DNA of 25,368 bases from contig JAHFJJ010000001.1 in assembly GCA_023245895.1 (NCBI GenBank), positions 71,621 to 96,988 of the forward strand, read 5' to 3'. Below the pieces are notes generated by a model, which saw nothing but the letters and a program-made list of their open reading frames with translations, made no database searches and had not been told where the DNA came from. Of this stretch, positions 12,630 through 25,368 are shown one piece after another. The translations under genes were made by a program, and so were the position numbers. Origin of the DNA: Candidatus Doudnabacteria bacterium. Lineage in GTDB: Bacteria > Patescibacteriota > Doudnabacteria > UBA920. Within the stretch, counting starts at the first letter, position 1; each line of letters starts with the position of its first letter.

Positions 12630-15600
12630 GTGAGAAACAATTCTAAAATAAAACACAATTTCAGAGCCGGGACTTTTAAAGTTTCATATAGTCCGTTTTT
12701 TAGATTAGGCCTGTTTTTAATGGTCTTTGTTATGCTGTTTCATATCAATCCACAGCAGGCCCAAGCAGCCAATTACACGTTTAGCCAATCCAGCTGGAGC
12801 GGTGGAACAACATCAAGCACAATGGTCCACCCGACTAACGAAACCGGCTGGACGCAGTATTCCACCAGTACCAATATTACCGCGGGCTCAACTATTACTC
12901 TCAATTCAAGCTTTGGAGCAGGCGGCTGGTACTCGACCGGAGGTACTTGGACTTACAGGAAAAAGATAACCATAGACCACACTAAAGTCAGCGGATCGAG
13001 CGCGCTGACTAATTTCCCAATGTTGTTTAACGTAACAGATTCGGATTTAAAATACACAGGCAGCGGAGGCGGGGTCGGCACTACATCTGGAAATGATATT
13101 TTATTTACTTCGTCAGACGGAACAACGCTTTTGAATTATGAAATAGAAAGCTACGCTTCCACTACCGGAGCTACCGCCGCCTGGGTTAATATTCCTTCCC
13201 TCTCCCCGACAACCGACACGACTATTTATATGTACTACGGTAATGCTTCAGCGGCGGCGGAAAGCGCCGGCAACATTACCGGCACTTGGGATTCCAATTT
13301 TAAAGGCGTATGGCACTTTCCCAGCACCACGACCTTGGGCGCTAATGATTCAACCAGCAACGCCAATAATGGATCTTCAACAACTACTACCGCCTCTACC
13401 GGCAAGATTGCTGGAAGCGCGAGTTTTAACGGCTCGGCTTTTATTTCCGTCGGCACCGGCTCGTCTTTGAATATTACTTCCCAGCCCGTTACTGTTTCAT
13501 CCTGGGTCAAACCAAGCAGCCAGCCTCCGACTTTCCAGATGATCTTTGATAAAGATGCTTCATACGCTTTTTTTCTCGACAGCAACAGCCCCCCAACAAA
13601 TTCTCTGGGGTTTAGGTCTAACATTAACGGGTCGATTGTTTACGCAAACAATAATATTATAACCACAGGCAGCTGGCAGCATGTAGCGGCAGTTTACGCT
13701 TCAAACACAGTTTCTTTTTACGTTAACGGCAGCCTGGCTTCAACCACAGCACTTTCAAACGCCTTTTCGTCTAACTCAAACGCGGCGGAAATTGGAAGGA
13801 GATTTACTAACGAACAGTTCTTTAATGGTGATATGGATGAAGTTAGGGTATCCTCTGCCGCCCGTTCCGCCGACTGGATTGCCACGGAATACGCCAACCA
13901 AAATTCGCCGTCAACTTTTCTTTCCGAAGCCTCGGCCGTAACTAATGTAAAAATGCTGGTTTCTTCGCCTTACGATTCCGGCAGTTCTAATAATATTTTA
14001 AACCAGGTTACCTGGACTGAAGATTCAACTTTGCCGGCCAATACTTCCGTGACCCTGGCCCTGCGCACGGGCAGTTCCACAACCACACTGGCCGCGGCAA
14101 GCTGGACCAATATTGCCACCAGCACGCCTTCCACCCTGACTTCCAACTGCAGCAAGGCTTCCGCGACAATTACCTGCAGCGCCGGCGCCATTGCCTCTTC
14201 TCTCAAAGACGGGTCCGGCGACGAATGGTTCCAGTACGCCGTAATTCTTAACAGCAGCGACGGAGTCTACACGCCCACAATTAGCGCGGTATCCGTGCAG
14301 TATGTGGTCAATGGCCCGCCGGATTTTAATTCCAACTACCCAACCGCCAGCGCCGGCGGAGTCTATGCTTACCAAAACGCGACCACCACAGACTCAAGTT
14401 TTGGCAAGGTAATAATCCAATACAGCGTTAGGGATACGGACTCAACCTCGGGCAACAGCACGCCCGGATATGTTACGCCTTCTTTCCAGTACAACATTGG
14501 CGGCAGCTGGACCAGCATAACTTCGGGCTACCTGGCATCTGGCGATTTGAACAACAAAGCCGTAAGCGAGTCCAGCTACACGACTTACCAGGCGACCTGG
14601 GACGCGAAAAGCCAAATCCCTACCAATTACCTGGCGACCGCGCAGGTAAGGGTGACTGTGAATGATAATGAGCTTGCGGGCAACACTGCCACACAAGCCT
14701 CAGCTAACTTTACCTTAGATACAACAAACCCTTCGGCCAGTATTCGTTTAGATGCCAGCAGCAACATAATTTATTCCACCTCAACCGACAGCAGCATTGT
14801 TTCATACTTGCTATCCAACAATTCCACCGGCACGCCCGATTCCTTAAATGCCATAAGCGGCATTTGGCAGTCTGCAAGCAGCACTTCGGTATCAACCTCT
14901 ACTGCCTGGACTTTTGCTTCAACCACTTATCCCACAGTCTACTTCCAGGCCCGCGACGCATACAATAACGGCGCCAGTACTACCGCGGTAGCCCCTTACG
15001 CGCCGACCAACATGGACATAAAAGATATTAGCAATACGGCTACAGGCGTGTACAGGGAATTTATTTCCTGGGGGGTTTATTCCGCAACTTCAAGCGCGGC
15101 CTTTTCCAAATATGAAATTTACCGTTCCACGGATGCCAGCAGCTATTCCCTGCTTAGCACAATTATTGACTCCTCCCTTAATTACTACGCCGACTCGGCG
15201 GTGGCCACTAGCAGCACTTATTACTACAAAATAAGAACGGTAGATACCGACACTGACAACTCCCCCTATTCTTCGGTTGTCAGCGATAAACCGGACGGCC
15301 AGGGCGGGACAGACATAACTGCCCCAACCATAAGCTCGGTAACCGTGGCGCAAACCCAGTCAACCTGGGCAACCATTACCTGGACCACGGATGAGCTGTC
15401 CAACTCCACGGTAGGATATTCCACGACTGCGGGCAGCTGGACATCAAGCCAGTCCTCAACCTCATTTTTGCTTAGCCATTCGGTGACAGTCTCCGGGCTT
15501 TTGCCAAATACCACCTACTACTTTAGGGTCCAGTCCTCGGACATTGTGGGCAACACGGCTACTGACAACAACGGCGGCAACGGATACAGTTTTACAACTG

Positions 15601-17591
15601 CCGGCGGTCCGACTATTTCCAATACCAGCGTTTCCGCGCAGGCCACCGGCGCTTCCATAACCTGGAATACGGACCGCAGTTCTGACTCCTACGTATATTA
15701 CTCCACCAATTCCAACCTTAGCTCGCCGCAAGTAGCCGGTAACGCGGCTTTGGTGTCAACAAGTTCAACTCCTTCAGTATTCCAGCATAGAGTCGACCTA
15801 ACAGGCTTGTCCGCGGCCACAACTTATTATTTCTACGTTAAATCCACGGACGGCAACAGCAATTCTTCCACGGACACCAATAACGGCAGTTACTATTCTT
15901 TCCGAACCGTGCTCGATACCCAGGCGCCGGTTATTTCGGGAATTTCAACGCCGGTAATTTCATCCACGGCCGCGGTAGTAGTATGGACTACGGACGAGCC
16001 GGCTACTTCAAGAGTTTCCCTGGGCACGGCTACCGGCAGCTACTCAACCAGCACTCCCGTTGACTCCACCTTAACCATAACCCATGTGGTCGCGCTCTCC
16101 GGTTTAACCGCCTCAACCAAATATTATTTCGTGGCCACTTCCCAGGACCAGGCGGGTAACTCCACCACCTCGGCCGAAAACACTTTTACTTCCGCCGATG
16201 CCAACGATATAATTTATATAGGCAGCGGGGGCGCGAGTGCCGGAGGCACAACCTCCGATATTACCCCGCCTGTCATTAGCAGCATTAAAACAGGAACGAC
16301 CACAGCCTTTAGCGTGACGGTTAGCTTCTCTACCAACGAATCGGCTGTTGGAATTGTTCAGTACGGGACTAGCGACAAATACGGCCAGTCAGGCGCTGAA
16401 TCAAGCTTTACTTCCACCCACAACATTAGCCTTACCGGCCTGCGCATGGGAACCAAATATCATTTTAAAGTTGTCGCCCTGGACAAAGCCGGCAACGAGG
16501 CTGATTCTGTAGACGGAACCTTTGAAACACAATTCTTGAGCGATGACTTAAGCAGCATAAATATCGATGACTTATACCAGTACCAGGAAGAAATTGAAAA
16601 CCAAATTGAATCAATCCTTCCCTCTATAGTCCCGCCGTTTATCGGCAAAGTAGCCATAAGTAACGTAAGCCAGGATTCAGCCGACATTTCCTGGCAGACT
16701 AACCTGAAAGCCTACTCCTCGGTTCAGTACGCTTCTGAAAACGACTACAATAAAGACAGCGAAAAGCCGTACCCAAGCGAAAGCGGCGACATTACCACCA
16801 AAGCCACCAACCATAGCCTAACTTTAACCGGGCTGACTCCCAACACCGTTTACCATTTTCGCGTTAAAGCCTACACCCTGCCCAAAGCCTCAAGCTCAAG
16901 CAAAGATATTTCTTTTACCACCAAGGCCGAGGATATTAAAGCCCACATTGCCGAGGTAAAAATCGATTCCTTCCGGGTGGTTTGGAGTACTGCAGACGCT
17001 TCAGATGCGGTAGTGGAATATAAAAATTTGAGCAACGGGCAGGTTAACCGTAAAGTAGATGAGCAAAAAAAGATTTTCCATGAAGTCACAATAGACAAAT
17101 TACCGTCCGGAACGACTTTTTTGGTAAAAGTTTCCAGCATCAACAATAAAGGCAACTTAACTGAAAATAAAGTGCCGCTTAAGGTAACTACCGGCACGGA
17201 CAACAACGCCCCCACAATTTCAGGACTGAAAATAGAAAGCACTTTGGTGCCGGGTAAACAAGACAAAGTCAGCACTTTAATCCGCTGGAACACGGATGAA
17301 CCGGCCAGTTCGGCTGTCTACTACGAAGAAGGCAGCGGCGCCCCTACCAACCAACACCTGGCCAATAAGGCTGTAGGCGACCAAAATGCTTTTGTAACCG
17401 ACCATGTGGTAGTGCTCGGCTCGCTGAAAGCCGGAGCTATTTACCGCATCCAGGTTGAATCCAGCGACTCGGCCGGCAACCTTACTGCGCCGACTATAAA
17501 AACCATTGTCGTGCCAAGACAAAGCCAATCGGTAACTGATATTATCTTTAAAAACTTTGAAGATTCCTTTAAGTTCCTAAACACGAAATAA
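12630..17591 (+). CDS. giant secreted/cell-surface protein: signal peptide, DUF2341-like domain, LamG/ConA-like lectin domain, Ig-like region, then about seven FN3/PAP-N-like repeats
   Basis: 1653 aa with a GTG start. It has a Sec-type signal (K/R-rich n-region, LGLFLMVFVMLF, AQA|AN). Residues 108-215 resemble DUF2341 (WTYRKKITIDHTKV...TTIYMYYGN). Residues 245-430 resemble LamG (WQHVAAVY...SFYVNGSL...FNGDMDEVRVSSAARSADWI). It has repeated ITWTTDE..S.V.Y....YYFRV.S.D..GN modules, an S/T/N-rich composition and many N-x-S/T sequons. Minus-strand ORFs inside it are spurious. Confidence 0.9.
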   Translation: MRNNSKIKHNFRAGTFKVSYSPFFRLGLFLMVFVMLFHINPQQAQAANYTFSQSSWSGGTTSSTMVHPTNETGWTQYSTSTNITAGSTITLNSSFGAGGWYSTGGTWTYRKKITIDHTKVSGSSALTNFPMLFNVTDSDLKYTGSGGGVGTTSGNDILFTSSDGTTLLNYEIESYASTTGATAAWVNIPSLSPTTDTTIYMYYGNASAAAESAGNITGTWDSNFKGVWHFPSTTTLGANDSTSNANNGSSTTTTASTGKIAGSASFNGSAFISVGTGSSLNITSQPVTVSSWVKPSSQPPTFQMIFDKDASYAFFLDSNSPPTNSLGFRSNINGSIVYANNNIITTGSWQHVAAVYASNTVSFYVNGSLASTTALSNAFSSNSNAAEIGRRFTNEQFFNGDMDEVRVSSAARSADWIATEYANQNSPSTFLSEASAVTNVKMLVSSPYDSGSSNNILNQVTWTEDSTLPANTSVTLALRTGSSTTTLAAASWTNIATSTPSTLTSNCSKASATITCSAGAIASSLKDGSGDEWFQYAVILNSSDGVYTPTISAVSVQYVVNGPPDFNSNYPTASAGGVYAYQNATTTDSSFGKVIIQYSVRDTDSTSGNSTPGYVTPSFQYNIGGSWTSITSGYLASGDLNNKAVSESSYTTYQATWDAKSQIPTNYLATAQVRVTVNDNELAGNTATQASANFTLDTTNPSASIRLDASSNIIYSTSTDSSIVSYLLSNNSTGTPDSLNAISGIWQSASSTSVSTSTAWTFASTTYPTVYFQARDAYNNGASTTAVAPYAPTNMDIKDISNTATGVYREFISWGVYSATSSAAFSKYEIYRSTDASSYSLLSTIIDSSLNYYADSAVATSSTYYYKIRTVDTDTDNSPYSSVVSDKPDGQGGTDITAPTISSVTVAQTQSTWATITWTTDELSNSTVGYSTTAGSWTSSQSSTSFLLSHSVTVSGLLPNTTYYFRVQSSDIVGNTATDNNGGNGYSFTTAGGPTISNTSVSAQATGASITWNTDRSSDSYVYYSTNSNLSSPQVAGNAALVSTSSTPSVFQHRVDLTGLSAATTYYFYVKSTDGNSNSSTDTNNGSYYSFRTVLDTQAPVISGISTPVISSTAAVVVWTTDEPATSRVSLGTATGSYSTSTPVDSTLTITHVVALSGLTASTKYYFVATSQDQAGNSTTSAENTFTSADANDIIYIGSGGASAGGTTSDITPPVISSIKTGTTTAFSVTVSFSTNESAVGIVQYGTSDKYGQSGAESSFTSTHNISLTGLRMGTKYHFKVVALDKAGNEADSVDGTFETQFLSDDLSSINIDDLYQYQEEIENQIESILPSIVPPFIGKVAISNVSQDSADISWQTNLKAYSSVQYASENDYNKDSEKPYPSESGDITTKATNHSLTLTGLTPNTVYHFRVKAYTLPKASSSSKDISFTTKAEDIKAHIAEVKIDSFRVVWSTADASDAVVEYKNLSNGQVNRKVDEQKKIFHEVTIDKLPSGTTFLVKVSSINNKGNLTENKVPLKVTTGTDNNAPTISGLKIESTLVPGKQDKVSTLIRWNTDEPASSAVYYEEGSGAPTNQHLANKAVGDQNAFVTDHVVVLGSLKAGAIYRIQVESSDSAGNLTAPTIKTIVVPRQSQSVTDIIFKNFEDSFKFLNTK

Positions 17592-20968: not shown

Positions 20969-20976
20969 ATCATATA

Positions 20977-21094
20977 GCGGGCAGCCGCCTACTTTTGCGC
21001 ATACATGCGTATGACTATCATTGGCCCGTGCGTGTTTTACTACTGAGTTCGGGATGGGATCAGGTAGGACCACGCTGGAAATGCCACCCTCGTC
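20977..21094 (-). rRNA. rrf: 5S ribosomal RNA
   Basis: The minus strand reads ...GUGGUCCUACCUGAUCCCAUCCCGAACUCAGUAGUAAAACACGCA..., matching the conserved 5S core (GGUCCCACCUGACCCCAUGCCGAACUCAGAAGUGAAAC). Terminal helix I pairs GAGGGUGGC with GCUGCCCGC. Confidence 0.8.
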
Positions 21095-21303
21095 GTACTT
21101 TATTCCGTGATTGGAGAATAAAAAACAAAGAGGGGGACACTTAGATCACTTATTATGGCTTAATTGCATTTACTGTGCCTTGAGTAAGGACGAAAAATCC
21201 GGCTGTTACTAAAAATATAATTAAAATAACCGCAAAAACCTTTAAGTGATGCTTCATTATAAGGGGGTAAATAAATTGTTATTGTACTGTTATGAACATT
21301 GTA

Positions 21304-21331: not shown

Positions 21332-21717
21332 ATGACTCTCTACTAAATAAATTATAGTGAGTCACAAATTGCTAGTCAATAGAAATAGAATTAAAATTTT
21401 CGGTTGATTAGTATTGCTCGGCTGAACACATTACTGTGCTTACACCTGCAACCTATAAAACGAGTGGTCAGTGATTAGTGTTTAGTGATTAGTATTGCTA
21501 CTATCCACTGCCCACTGCACACTATCCACTAGTTATGATACGGGGTAGTCTTCCCCGAACCTTTATTATGTATTGCTACATAAAACGAAACCTAGTTTCT
21601 TGGACGGCTTCACGCTTATATGCATTCAGCGCTTATCCTAACTAGACCTAGCTACCCCGCCATGCCGCGGACGCGACAACGGGTACACCAGAGGTCTATG
21701 CATCCCGGTCCTCTCGT

Positions 21718-22569
21718 CACATATTCTTCTGTCACCAGAAGTGCAGACTATATCTTCATCCTATCTTATACCTTAGGCTCCTGGGCCATAGTATTTTTTT
21801 ATGATAGGTGTCGGCGTATTATAGAAATAGTAGAAAGTATAAAGTTGAAAGTTTAAAGTAACTGCAATTGCAGTCCTTTTCACTTTCTACTTTTAACTTT
21901 TAACTACCTTCCATCTCCTCTTTCGAGTCAGTCGTTACGGGGTCAAACCTAAAATCTTAAATAATTCAAGTCCGGTTTTCTTTTTCCGAGTTGCGTAGTT
22001 ATTATTTTGAATTATTGTTATACAGCTTATAATTTTCCTGAGTTCAGATTGCGTAAAATTAGCAATCTTTTTCCCTTCCAGAATTCCGGCTGCTTTATAC
22101 AAAGCCGCAGCTTGTTGCTTCTTAAAACGTATAAATGGAATTAAATCTTTAAGAATGTTTTTAATTTGAGTCACCCCGTTTATACGAAGTTCGCTCATTC
22201 CGTCATTTCTGCGGGATAAGTACCCAATGCCTAAAACTTTCTTAATCCAGAAAAGTTCTGCTTCATGGCGGCTATCCTGATAAAAACAGATAGTGCACAT
22301 AAAACGAACTTTTTTCTTTCCATCTTTGCGCTTTTTGATTTGCAACATTAAGCTGCCGTCTCCGTCTAAAAAGCCGGCAATATAAGCTAAATCAATTTTA
22401 GATCGACTTCCCACGGTATTGTCTTAATATTCTTGGTCCTCAAGTAAATTGTACCATAACTGAAGAACCGTTACAATTATGGTTATCAACGGATGCAAAA
22501 TATATTAAGATTTCACCGTTATTAGCCGAATTTTCAAGGCAGATTACTCTGCCAAGTAGCAAACCCTTT
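21718..22569 (-). other. intron (group I-like, 852 nt) inserted in the 23S sarcin-ricin loop (E. coli U2656/A2657 equivalent)
   Basis: The 5' exon ends ...GCGCAUCCCUAGU (22570). The 3' exon starts ACGAGAGGACCGGGAU (21717). Joined, they restore the universal SRL CCUAGUACGAGAGGACC closed by the AUCCC/GGGAU stem. The intron starts with A after an exonic U and ends in G. Confidence 0.7.
21935..22414 (-). CDS. LAGLIDADG homing endonuclease (single-motif) encoded in the SRL intron
   Basis: It has the LAYIAGFLDGDGS motif near its N-terminus. It is 159 aa with a GTG start, and lies entirely within the intron. Confidence 0.85.
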   Translation of the reverse strand: MGSRSKIDLAYIAGFLDGDGSLMLQIKKRKDGKKKVRFMCTICFYQDSRHEAELFWIKKVLGIGYLSRRNDGMSELRINGVTQIKNILKDLIPFIRFKKQQAAALYKAAGILEGKKIANFTQSELRKIISCITIIQNNNYATRKKKTGLELFKILGLTP

Positions 22570-22699
22570 ACTAGGGATGCGCCCAATCAAGTTTCGAACA
22601 CCCACAGCAGATAAGGACCAAACTGTCTCACGACGTTTTGAACCCAGCTCGCGTACCACTTTAATATGCGAACAGCATAACCCTTGGGAGCTTCTTCAC

Positions 22700-22738
<39 letters not shown>

Positions 22739-23308
22739 TCTCGTCGATGTGGACTCTTGGAGAGGATCAGCCTGTTATCCCTAGAGTAACTTTTATCCGT
22801 TGGGCTTTGCGTCTTCCACTCGAACGCATCGGATCACTAACTTCCACTTTCGTGCCTGCGCGGGTCGCCGCCCTTGCAGTCAAGCATGCTTATGCGTTTG
22901 CACTATCAGCATGATTTCCATCCATGCCTAGCATACCTTAATAAACGCCTCCGTTACCATTTAGGAGGCAACCGCCCCAGTTAAACTACCCACGAGCCAC
23001 TGTCCCAAAGTAGGTTAGACTTTGGTTAGAATTAATATTTTTACAGAGTGGTATTTCACCTTTTGCCTCCATTTGAGCTGGCGCCCAAACTTCAAAGGCT
23101 CCCACCTAGGCTAAACAATAAAAGCATTAATTCAATGACACGCTATAGTAAAGCTTCATAGGGTCTTTCCGTCTTGCTGCGGGTAGACGGCATCTTTACC
23201 GCCACTGTAAGTTCATCGGAATGTTCGTTAAGACAGTTCTCTGCTCGTTATGCCATTCGTGCGGGTCGCAACTTACGCGACAAGGAATTTCGCTACCATA
23301 GGACAGTT

Positions 23309-24044
23309 CATAATGTTAGCTTCATGTTTCCATGAAGTTCAGACTATATCATTCCATCAATTGGATGGATTCGGCGTTTAGTCGTTGAGGGTTTTTACTA
23401 AATGATTCTTTAAAATTTGTTAAATTATGCTTTCGAGTTCTACCTTTTCCTTCATTTAAGTCCTCACGAAGTTTTACTATTTCTAGCAACCCTTCCTGAT
23501 TTAAATGTTGGCTTGCAAAAACTAATCTTGCAATTTTAGAGAATAACGAATAGTTTCTTTTTTTACTAGCGGACAAGAAACCGAACCGGTCAAAGAAAGG
23601 AATTATTTTTTCTTTGAGTGCTGTATGATTTTGGACAATATATTGATGCACGCCATCTTTCCTATGGTCAATGCGACCACAGCCTAAATGATGCTTCAAC
23701 AAAGCAAGTACGGTAATGTCTTTTTGAGCAACATTAAACGTTAATATTACTTGCCATAATACTTTACTGTCGTTTCGTTTACGAAGGGAAACATTAAAGC
23801 TTCCTTCTCCGTCTACAAAACCTGCAAAGTAATTTCCAATTTCAACAGGAATTTGCTTTAACCAATTTTGATCCATAAAGTTTCCTTCTGAATCTTTTAG
23901 TAAATCTTCCCTGCGGATTGACTGTATCTTGTAAATTTTTACTGTCAATTTAATGACGAGTATTACAAGCTTTAAGCACATCAAAGTCCTTTGTGTGCAC
24001 AGTTATTCCCGCAAATAGCCAAATTTTATAACTACAACATGTTC
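23309..24044 (-). other. group I-like intron (736 nt) in 23S helix 69 at the L1917-equivalent site
   Basis: The 5' exon ends ...GGCAGUAACUAU (U at 24045). The 3' exon starts AACUGUCCUAUGGUAGCGAAAUUCC (23308). Joined, they give the H69 loop UAACUAUAAC. The intron ends in G. The junction can slide by 3-4 nt because of the local repeat gaac...gaac. Confidence 0.65.
23349..23984 (-). CDS. LAGLIDADG homing endonuclease (single-motif) encoded in the L1917 intron
   Basis: It has the NYFAGFVDGEGSF motif. The likely true start is the internal Met at 23876 (MDQNWLKQIPVEIGNYFAGF...). The longer N-terminal extension probably reads through intron core sequence. Confidence 0.85.
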   Translation of the reverse strand: MMCLKLVILVIKLTVKIYKIQSIRREDLLKDSEGNFMDQNWLKQIPVEIGNYFAGFVDGEGSFNVSLRKRNDSKVLWQVILTFNVAQKDITVLALLKHHLGCGRIDHRKDGVHQYIVQNHTALKEKIIPFFDRFGFLSASKKRNYSLFSKIARLVFASQHLNQEGLLEIVKLREDLNEGKGRTRKHNLTNFKESFSKNPQRLNAESIQLME

Positions 24045-24814
24045 ATAGTTACTGCCGGCGTTCATCAGGGCTTGGCCGATCGGCTTGCGCCAACCGGTTT
24101 AACCTTCTGACACTGGCCAGGCATCAGCCCGTATACATCAGCTTGCGCTTTAGCACGGACCTAAGTTTTTGGTAAACAGTCGGAGGAGATCTTTCGCTGC
24201 GGCCCTGTACCATTCATTCGCTTACGCGAATTCAGGTGCAGGGCAAGGTATATACCGAAGGTACACCTGCTTTTTTGCCGAGTTCCTTAACGAACATTGG
24301 TCCGGACGCCTTGGGATTCTCTCCCCATCCACCTGTGTCGGTTTACGGTACGAGCACTTTATAACATGACTTCGACGCTTTTCTTGACACCTTGATTCAC
24401 ACTAATCTCCGTTGCCAGATTTTTTTATGCTTTCGAGATTACAATCGCATCAACCATCTCTTGCGAGGTAAGCTGATGTAATATAGGAACTCCGGATTTA
24501 CCTAAAGTTCCACCCTACGAGCACAACAACGCCAATAGTCAGATGACGCTAATGTTATCATGATGCGTCCCGCCTAAGATAATTATAAAGCGGTTATGGA
24601 ATATCAACCATATTTTCCATCGGGTGAACCCCTTGGGGCCCACTCTTAGGATCGACTAACCCAGGGACGACGATCGTTGCCCTGGAAACCTTGGATATTC
24701 GGCGAAGAGGATTCTCACCTCTATATATATTACTTATTCCAACATTCTTACTTGTACACTGTCCACGGCCGCTTACGCATACCGCTTCAGCCTGTGTACA
24801 ACACTCCTCTACCA

Positions 24815-24927
24815 CTTATGCGAAGCATAAGAACAATTAACTTTTAACAATTAACAATTGACCGGCTGCAGACTGCAGTAGTTAATCGTTAATCGTTAAT
24901 TGTTACCAGTTTTTATGCTTCGCATAA
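24815..24927 (-). repeat. 113-nt hairpin expansion segment in 23S (replacing the short helix after the GTPase-associated centre), built of tandem 7-10-nt repeats
   Basis: The base palindromes are cttatgcgaagcataag and tttatgcttcgcataaa. Tandem aacaattaac copies pair with tandem gttaatc copies around the central palindrome ctgcagactgcag. E. coli has only GCGGCAGCGACGCUUAUGCGUUGUUGGGUAG at this position. Confidence 0.5.
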
Positions 24928-25010
24928 ATCCACGTCTTCGGCACCTAGCTTAGCCCCTATATATTGTCGGCGCAGGATCGCTTGACCAGTGAGCTGTTAC
25001 GCTTTCTTTA

Positions 25011-25047
<37 letters not shown>

Positions 25048-25368
25048 GGGCAATCCCACATCCTTTGCACTATAGCTAGGATTTGGGGGCCTTAGACGGT
25101 GGTGTGGATTCTTCTCCATTTGTCTCGTGAAGCTTAGACCTCACGGACTGACTGCCAATTTCTTGACCTTTAGAATTCGGAGTTTGGTTGGAGCCTACCG
25201 CTTGCGCAGCAGGTTTCCATTCAGTGCTCTACCTCTAAAGGGAACAATTGACGCTAGCCCTAAAGCTATTTCGAGGAGAACCAGCTATCACCCGGTTCGA
25301 TTGGAATTTCTCCCCTACGCACAGCTCATCCCCTATTTTTGCAGCAATAGTGGGTTCGGACCTCCCGT

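Follow-up and report, generated by a model that had tools for sequence, protein, structure and literature searches.

The 23S rRNA gene found in the window, the whole stretch of 25,368 nucleotides analysed here, is interrupted by an insert falling within the sarcin-ricin loop (SRL). The locus raises the questions of what kind of element is hosted there, how the two halves of the loop may be brought together again, and whether the position is new for an intron.

The gene is carried by the minus strand, and its 3' two-thirds are included in the window; the match to the Rfam model LSU_rRNA_bacteria (22523-25368) is ended by the window edge. A 5S gene (20976-21091) is located downstream. The insert measures 852 nt, and extends on the minus strand from 22569 (AAAGGG...) to 21718 (...ATATGTG). 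Once it is excised in silico, CAUCCCUAGU adjoins ACGAGAGGACCGGGAUG, and the resulting sequence is the SRL, which the H95 stem closes with 7 perfect bp. The limits of the insert and the exon reconstruction reported in a preliminary description of this DNA are exact, as judged from the flanks aligned by BLASTN and from the restored loop. The closing stem AUCCC/GGGAU proposed there is similarly found, as part of the whole H95 stem GCAUCCC/GGGAUGC, which is complementary at 7/7 positions. The expected junction of the ligated exons reads UAGU-ACGAGAGG (UAGU-ACGAG). The parts of the interrupted loop are the following.

22570 to 22579, minus strand: end of the 5' exon, H95 5' strand and first SRL bases CAUCCCUAGU; U2656 is 22570, and U is found at -1 in 75/75 homologues
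up to 22570, minus strand: terminal sequence of the 5' exon, ...GCGCATCCCTAGT
21718 to 22569, minus strand: 852-nt insert assigned to group I introns, between U2656 and A2657
21700 to 21717, minus strand: start of the 3' exon, ACGAGAGGACC (remaining SRL) followed by the H95 3' strand GGGAUGC
from 21717, minus strand: first bases of the 3' exon, ACGAGAGGACCGGGATGC

Positions were derived from an E. coli 23S gene copy of 2907 nt (L001), in which numbering is shifted by +3 at the SRL relative to the standard one, AGTACGAGAGGACC beginning at 2657 and not at 2654. Window segments 23308-22569 and 21717-21614 align by BLASTN to neighbouring E. coli 23S positions. BLASTN coordinates were used throughout, as the 3' region is misplaced when the gene, intron included, is aligned globally to E. 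coli with MAFFT. Because the flanks abut on the E. coli 23S, and given the +3 offset, in standard numbering the insert separates U2656 from A2657, in agreement with the preliminary description. Intron and 3' exon both begin with A, a one-base ambiguity by which the alignment alone is compatible with 2657/2658; the junction is fixed at 2656/2657 by the group I rule that the exon base at -1 is U and the last intron base is G. Since the SRL is split at 2656/2657, a functional loop needs its halves to be rejoined, a point also anticipated in the preliminary description.

The same arrangement recurs in many related genomes. Homologues of the endonuclease encoded by the insert number 3289 at E <= 1e-5, hundreds of which are equal in length and 65-75% identical. 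A scan covering a single genome for each GTDB species gave 554 or more stretches in which a relative of the endonuclease is encoded, and 80 loci were retained. The junction is identical in 75 of the 78 evaluable loci, and reads ...YUAGU / A...UUGCUAC...G / ACGAGAGGACC, slashes marking the intron ends. Exon -1 is U, intron +1 is A, the last intron base is G and exon +1 is A in 75/75 loci. In 75/78 loci the two 7-nt strands of H95, one on either side of the intron, pair at every position, and about 40 variants of their sequence occur. The junction is therefore not due to chance, being recurrent in 75/78 loci, each with a fully complementary stem, and the aligned sequences indicate that H95 is kept as a helix and that the exon halves co-evolve. 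A pattern scan of metagenomes gave 120 matches, mostly due to chance. Of these, 91 lack a downstream SRL and were not used; the other 29, on metagenome contigs, show the same junction, followed by the SRL and with H95 complementary at 7/7 positions.

To which class of elements the insert belongs is told by its non-coding parts. A helix model was derived from the MAFFT alignment of these regions, and pairs were counted over 74 distinct homologues. The features are listed in 5' to 3' order of the transcript, all on the minus strand.

22557 to 22569, minus strand: P1, intron side, AAA, GGG loop and UUUGCUA, the last facing exon UAGU and intron AAA; the guide GCUA (22560-22557) pairs with exon UAGU
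22538 to 22553, minus strand: P2 hairpin GGCAGA-GUAA-UCUGCC with a GNRA loop, 435/437 cells paired, recovered by MFE folding
22525 to 22529, minus strand: P3 5' strand UCGGC, pairing with 21811-21815, 340/365 paired
J3/4, minus strand: UAAUAA
22414 to 22518, minus strand: P4-P5-P5a-P5b domain, from pair counts, an inverted repeat and the MFE fold
22518-22514 and 22418-22414, minus strand: P4, CGGUG/UACCG, 363/365 paired, nearly invariant
22510-22502 and 22430-22422, minus strand: P5, from the MFE fold
22405 to 22412, minus strand: P6 5' strand GGGAAGUC, codons 2-4 of the ORF, invariant, all cells paired
21935 to 22414, minus strand: ORF of 159 aa with a GTG start, single-motif LAGLIDADG homing endonuclease, in the P6 loop
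21939 to 21944, minus strand: P6 3' strand GACCCC, last three ORF codons
J6/7, minus strand: GUAA
21929 to 21933, minus strand: P7 5' strand GACUG, pairing with 21746-21750; GACU/AGUC invariant in 74/74, recovered by MFE folding
21927-21918, minus strand: P7.1, CUC-GAAA-GAG, from the MFE fold
21914-21821, minus strand: P7.2, long AT-rich hairpin, from the MFE fold and an inverted repeat
21811 to 21815, minus strand: P3 3' strand GCCGA, forming the pseudoknot together with P7
21760 to 21808, minus strand: P8 hairpin CCUAUC...GAUAGG, from the RF00028 alignment and the MFE fold; the first two pairs are conserved or covary
21746 to 21759, minus strand: J8/7 AUGAAGAUA and P7 3' strand UAGUC, group I 'S' element, from the RF00028 alignment, invariant
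21726 to 21741, minus strand: P9 hairpin CUUCUG-GUGA-CAGAAG, 444/444 paired, covariation at 5/6 positions
21718, minus strand: terminal (omega) G, G in 75/75 homologues

The U-G, G-C, A-U and U-A pairs of P1 are canonical in 74/74 homologues, with the splice-site U wobbling with the guide G, and UUGCUACUU is near-invariant in this region. Compensatory exchanges are found in several of the other helices: four to five pair types occur at 5/6 positions of P2, CG/UA/UG and GC/UA exchanges in P3, and P5b, 86% paired, covaries through many exchanges. P4, P6 and P7 are near-invariant, and are accordingly backed by conservation with little covariation; one compensatory P6 variant, GGGAACUC...GAGCCC (CUC/GAG), was found in a homologue lacking the ORF (L088:2090-2468). 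P8 aligns poorly among homologues past its first two pairs. The region from P7 to P3' (21821 to 21927) varies in length, and P7.1-like GNRA hairpins with other stems are recognizable by eye in the alignment of the homologues. When the 3' non-coding part is folded alone, P7, P7.1, P7.2, P8 and P9 are recovered by MFE (z -5.6); P2, P4, P5, P5a and P5b are similarly recovered from the 5' part (z -3.6). No clear P10 pairing with the 3' exon was recognized.

Two other pairings were considered and discarded. GCCGAC had been a candidate for P7, but covariation assigns it to P3', paired with UCGGC, and P7 is formed by GACU(G)/(U)AGUC just past the stop codon. Pairing of the first intron bases with the H95 5' exon strand (CCCU/AGGG in the window, chosen by MFE) gives too weak a signal, the longest exon-intron complementary run in the 75 loci averaging 3.69 vs 3.51 +/- 0.08 in permuted pairs.

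A scan with the Rfam group I model RF00028, proposed in the preliminary description, detects the window copy below the gathering score of 50: one match of 30.3 bits (E 1e-5) at 21725-21858, in which the model is aligned to P8, to the J8/7 'S' element AUGAAGAUAUAGUCU and to P9, and one of 20.2 bits at 22237-22579. The low score is explained by the P6-loop ORF, which splits the core and hence the model. An ORF-less homologue at the SRL site (L108:4903-5194) reaches 50.5 bits, just above the threshold. In the eight loci scanned at the gathering score, the model passes only in other introns, and in none of the SRL introns containing the ORF.

The splice-site U-G pair, the omega G, and the P3-P9 core with its P3/P7 pseudoknot and J8/7, as read from the aligned homologues, identify the SRL insert as a group I intron. 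The LAGLIDADG-encoding intron seen within the SRL in the preliminary description is thus borne out. The extra helices modelled between P7 and P3' suggest an IA-like architecture. The hairpin at the P7.2 position of the window (21821-21914, minus strand) is unusually long, AT-rich, and includes short repeats of the AAAGU/ACUUU type; owing to it, the window intron exceeds by about 60 nt the family median of about 790 nt. Extra sequence after P9 was noticed in loci L164, L088 and L083.

The ORF product matches Pfam LAGLIDADG_1 with 41.8 bits vs a threshold of 23.1, and features one such stretch per 159-aa chain. Its closest relatives of known structure in PDB are the homodimeric enzymes I-MsoI, I-CvuI and I-CreI (E 1e-12 to 1e-26). 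The motif reads GFLDGDG, and no member of the aligned family departs from D19, Q46 or K98; by our own reading of the alignment to the PDB relatives, these presumably correspond to I-CreI D20, Q47 and K98. The ORF of the window is full length, and carries every family-invariant residue. P4'/P6 is formed by the codons at the two ends of the ORF, GUG GGA AGU C.. at the start and .. UUG ACC CCG UAA at the end, and the invariance of G2, S3, L157, T158 and P159 is attributed to this double duty. The GTG start lies inside P4/P6, with no obvious ribosome-binding site.

The DNA that the enzyme may recognize has been rebuilt by joining the exons.

rebuilt intron-less SRL rDNA duplex: GCGCATCCCTAGTACGAGAGGACCGGGATGC

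In this target (CATCCCTAGT/ACGAGAGGAC) the best twofold symmetry falls exactly at the junction, with 5/10 matches and a palindromic GTAC centre. A pseudo-palindrome centred on the junction is to be expected in the target of an enzyme acting as a homodimer. The central 15 bp of the rDNA site (-3 to +11) are invariant in 75/75 loci, and the SRL rDNA site is near-universal.

Some copies of the intron have lost the ORF wholly or in part. Seven of the 29 metagenome introns are short or ORF-decayed (292, 331, 334, 379, 387, 510 and 618 nt), and the ORF-less copies at the SRL site, 292-387 nt long, retain intact cores. A plain P6 hairpin replaces the coding region both in the 292-nt copy L108:4913-5204 and in L088. 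In L196:1086-1416 only the first six and the last few codons of the ORF remain, and the ORF of L102:6971-7588 is internally deleted. ORF-containing, decayed and ORF-less copies make up the usual series of gain, decay and loss of homing-endonuclease genes.

As regards the host, the sequence is that of a CPR/Patescibacteria member, probably Ca. Doudnabacteria. The closest named relatives of GlmS are from Ca. Doudnabacteria and Patescibacteria (75-81% identity), and the SRL-intron loci kept from the species-genome scan are all from CPR MAGs. Neighbour genes are ordinary bacterial ones (GAPDH, GlmS, an ABC/FtsX pair, a 1653-aa surface protein). Proteins identical to the window endonuclease and to GlmS, the two ORFs checked, are already present in public assemblies; a gene for the identical enzyme is carried by the ENA assemblies ERZ27296333 and ERZ27297344. 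The 1653-aa ORF (12630-17591, plus strand) features DUF2341, LamG-like, fn3 and purple-acid-phosphatase-N repeats, and its product is probably a large protein that the CPR host secretes or displays on its surface. For many SRL-intron loci (L005, L010, L013 and others), the MAG of origin is a TPA assembly bearing the title 'uncultured Candidatus Saccharibacteria bacterium'. Saccharibacteria have been reported to be without such introns (Tsurumaki et al., PMC11270868), and the titles may be a generic or wrong label for Patescibacteria bins.

Other features were noticed in the rRNA region of the window. A second group I intron resides in the same 23S gene at the classical L1917 site (23309-24044, minus strand; exon GUAACUAU/AAC, intron end ...AUUAUG); it scores 36 bits with RF00028, below threshold, and hosts its own LAGLIDADG_1 ORF (23349-23984, 211 aa, Pfam 72 bits). 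Several introns per 23S gene are the norm in these CPR loci, and further group I introns above the RF00028 gathering score were found in the SRL-intron 23S genes L002 (98-345), L004 (99-363 and 1444-1632), L008 (247-501) and L108 (3438-3711). Compared with E. coli, the helix-45 region is lengthened near position 1165-1170 by an insert of about 90-110 nt (24816-24927, minus strand). This insert is a long imperfect hairpin with 47-nt arms, 81% complementary, featuring short repeats similar to TTAACGA/TTAACAA, and looks like the RNase III-type intervening sequence (IVS) known there (23IS4, Tsurumaki et al., PMC11270868). The spacer of about 500 nt between the 23S and 5S genes contains short direct repeats (CAGTGG..., ACTAATCACT..., about 21455-21530) and a small ORF translated by hand, MKHHLKVFAVILIIFLVTAGFFVLTQGTVNAIKP (34 aa, about 21153-21257, minus strand), whose product looks like a single-pass membrane peptide. 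The P7.2 hairpin is similar in style to both the helix-45 insert and these spacer repeats.

Is the position new? The preliminary description had supposed that it was undescribed, and this is refuted by the survey of 348 CPR 23S genes of Tsurumaki et al. (2024, J Bacteriol), in which the frequent insertion sites 23IS1-14 have been defined (PMC11270868). 'Position 2657' is there the frequent CPR site 23IS14, hosting group I introns that mostly encode LAGLIDADG_1 proteins (PMC11270868). The same domain predominates at 1917, 1931, 1952, 2593, 2604 and 2657 (23IS6-8 and 12-14), ORF-containing and ORF-less insertions share sites, and the group I introns at 23IS9, -10, -11, -13 and -14 had been previously unreported in known bacteria (PMC11270868). 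The window element is a member of the CPR class 23IS14, of which site, intron type and enzyme family are already known. Shared features are the 23S position 2656/2657 (within the A/A ambiguity), the group I type, the single-domain LAGLIDADG_1 protein, the CPR host, and the coexistence of forms with and without ORF. The difference is that the survey presents neither a P1-P9 model nor a splicing test for the 2657 site; there is otherwise nothing substantive. The word 'sarcin' is absent from its main text, where the SRL location is not discussed (PMC11270868). Searches of the open-access literature found no relevant use of L2655, L2656 or L2657 as intron names, nor any combination of 'sarcin-ricin loop' with group I intron terms, and the text of a 2025 group I intron database paper is without rRNA positions.

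Elements similar in part have been described elsewhere. The homodimeric enzymes I-CreI, I-MsoI and I-CvuI, from chloroplast L2593 23S group I introns, are likewise about 160 aa long, single-motif, and encoded in a peripheral loop; they differ because they target L2593 in green-algal chloroplasts, whereas the predicted target of the window enzyme is SRL 2656/2657 in a CPR host. I-ShaI, a CPR LAGLIDADG enzyme at 23IS7, cleaves its own insertion site and dimerises (PMC11270868). It is also a single-domain enzyme of a CPR 23S group I intron, but both site and enzyme lineage differ, and by analogy it demonstrates no more than that a CPR enzyme of this kind is capable of activity. The bacterial L1917/L1931/L1951 introns (Coxiella, Thermotoga, Simkania, cyanobacteria) are also LAGLIDADG group I introns found in critical, universally conserved 23S sites; these are located in domain IV (H69-H71), the window SRL intron in domain VI (H95). 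The J8/7-P7-P9 segment GAAGAUAUAGUCUGC...GUGA... presumably resembles that of the T4 td intron (phage group IA), and the extra helices between P7 and P3' are shared with phage group IA introns, the likeness being confined to core motifs. A specific phage relationship is unsupported, as the 473 phage records matched in BLAST by the 73-nt 3' core feature only short, weak motif matches.

The element is very probably a mobile group I intron, IA-like, which best accounts for the data and resides at SRL U2656/A2657 in the single 23S gene of a CPR bacterium (probably Ca. Doudnabacteria). Once transcribed, the intron would fold into the P1-P9 core. An external guanosine would attack after the exon U, wobble-paired to the guide G in UUGCUAC, and the freed exon would in turn attack past the terminal G, joining UAGU to ACGAGAGGACC. 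With the exons rejoined, H95 and the SRL could form. The 159-aa enzyme encoded in the P6 loop, a predicted homodimer, would cut intron-less SRL rDNA near the palindromic centre GT/AC, and the intron would be copied into empty alleles (homing). Splicing with ligation, the activity of the enzyme and its target are what we infer from sequence comparison. The H95 variants found in the loci prove that the two halves co-evolve, not that they are ligated. A single cut in the SRL, such as that made by alpha-sarcin after G2661, inactivates ribosomes. Ligation is suggested because the insert has a ribozyme core, because a nick in the SRL kills ribosomes, and because the removal of CPR rRNA insertions has been published. 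According to the passage of PMC11270868 that cites Brown et al. 2015, transcripts are freed of such insertions.

The insert could in principle be an IVS that RNase III, or an enzyme like it, excises without rejoining the ends, in which case the H95 stem would keep the pieces of a fragmented 23S together. Bacterial 23S genes are known to contain fragmenting IVSs, which are also suspected in CPR (PMC11270868), an IVS-like hairpin is present near helix 45 of this very gene, and H95 covariation is equally expected for pieces paired in trans. However, RNase III-type IVSs are helix-tip hairpins found at helices 9, 25 and 45, not at H95, and have no ribozyme core; the group I core of the SRL insert is complete, the U/G splice-site rules are obeyed in 75/75 loci, and an ORF-less homologue passes RF00028. 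The break would moreover fall inside the SRL, where a single cut inactivates ribosomes, and not at a helix tip, all of which makes a fragmenting IVS highly improbable. Similarly improbable is that this rRNA gene copy has lost its function and harbours an intron remnant that is decayed and does not splice. The sub-threshold RF00028 score, the extra AT-rich peripheral hairpin, and the existence of ORF-decayed relatives (L196, L102) would fit it, but core helices and both splice-site bases are all intact, the ORF is neither truncated nor missing any family-invariant residue, and the universal SRL and a perfect H95 stem are preserved in the exons. The neighbouring 5S gene and the second, intact intron at L1917 look normal, and one rRNA operon is usual in CPR genomes (PMC11270868).

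A genuine group I intron may also not be self-sufficient, and need its own LAGLIDADG protein as maturase, or a host factor. Some LAGLIDADG proteins are established maturases (mentioned in PMC11270868), P1 is short (four exon pairs), no P10 is evident, and MFE folding of the 5' half of the window intron picks the exon-intron hairpin CCCU/AGGG over P1. ORF-less copies of 292-387 nt, residing at the same site with intact cores, argue that the RNA is independent of its own protein, and helper-dependence is regarded as unlikely.

In comparison with the intron proposed here, which splits the SRL and encodes a homing enzyme, a bolder scheme may be conceived, in which SRL splicing is a late built-in checkpoint, or timer, for the activation of CPR ribosomes, and the enzyme an unusually broad-host homing nuclease. 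The former idea stems from the intron splitting the SRL bulged-G motif, as the GTPase-activating site of the 50S would be absent until splicing; the latter from the predicted rDNA target, near-universal and with its central 15 bp invariant in 75 loci. Neither is discussed in the paper cataloguing the site (PMC11270868). Nothing in the present analysis supports the checkpoint or the pan-domain rDNA nuclease, and we regard the scheme as quite improbable.

As a discovery the locus has little weight, site, intron type and enzyme family having been published for CPR. What is added is an explicit, covariation-backed P1-P9 model, the finding that the first and last codons of the ORF form P6, and the identification of site 23IS14 with the bulged-G region of the SRL. 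This intron family is a reasonable starting point to obtain a nuclease directed against universally conserved rDNA, or to test whether ribosome activation may be gated by splicing.
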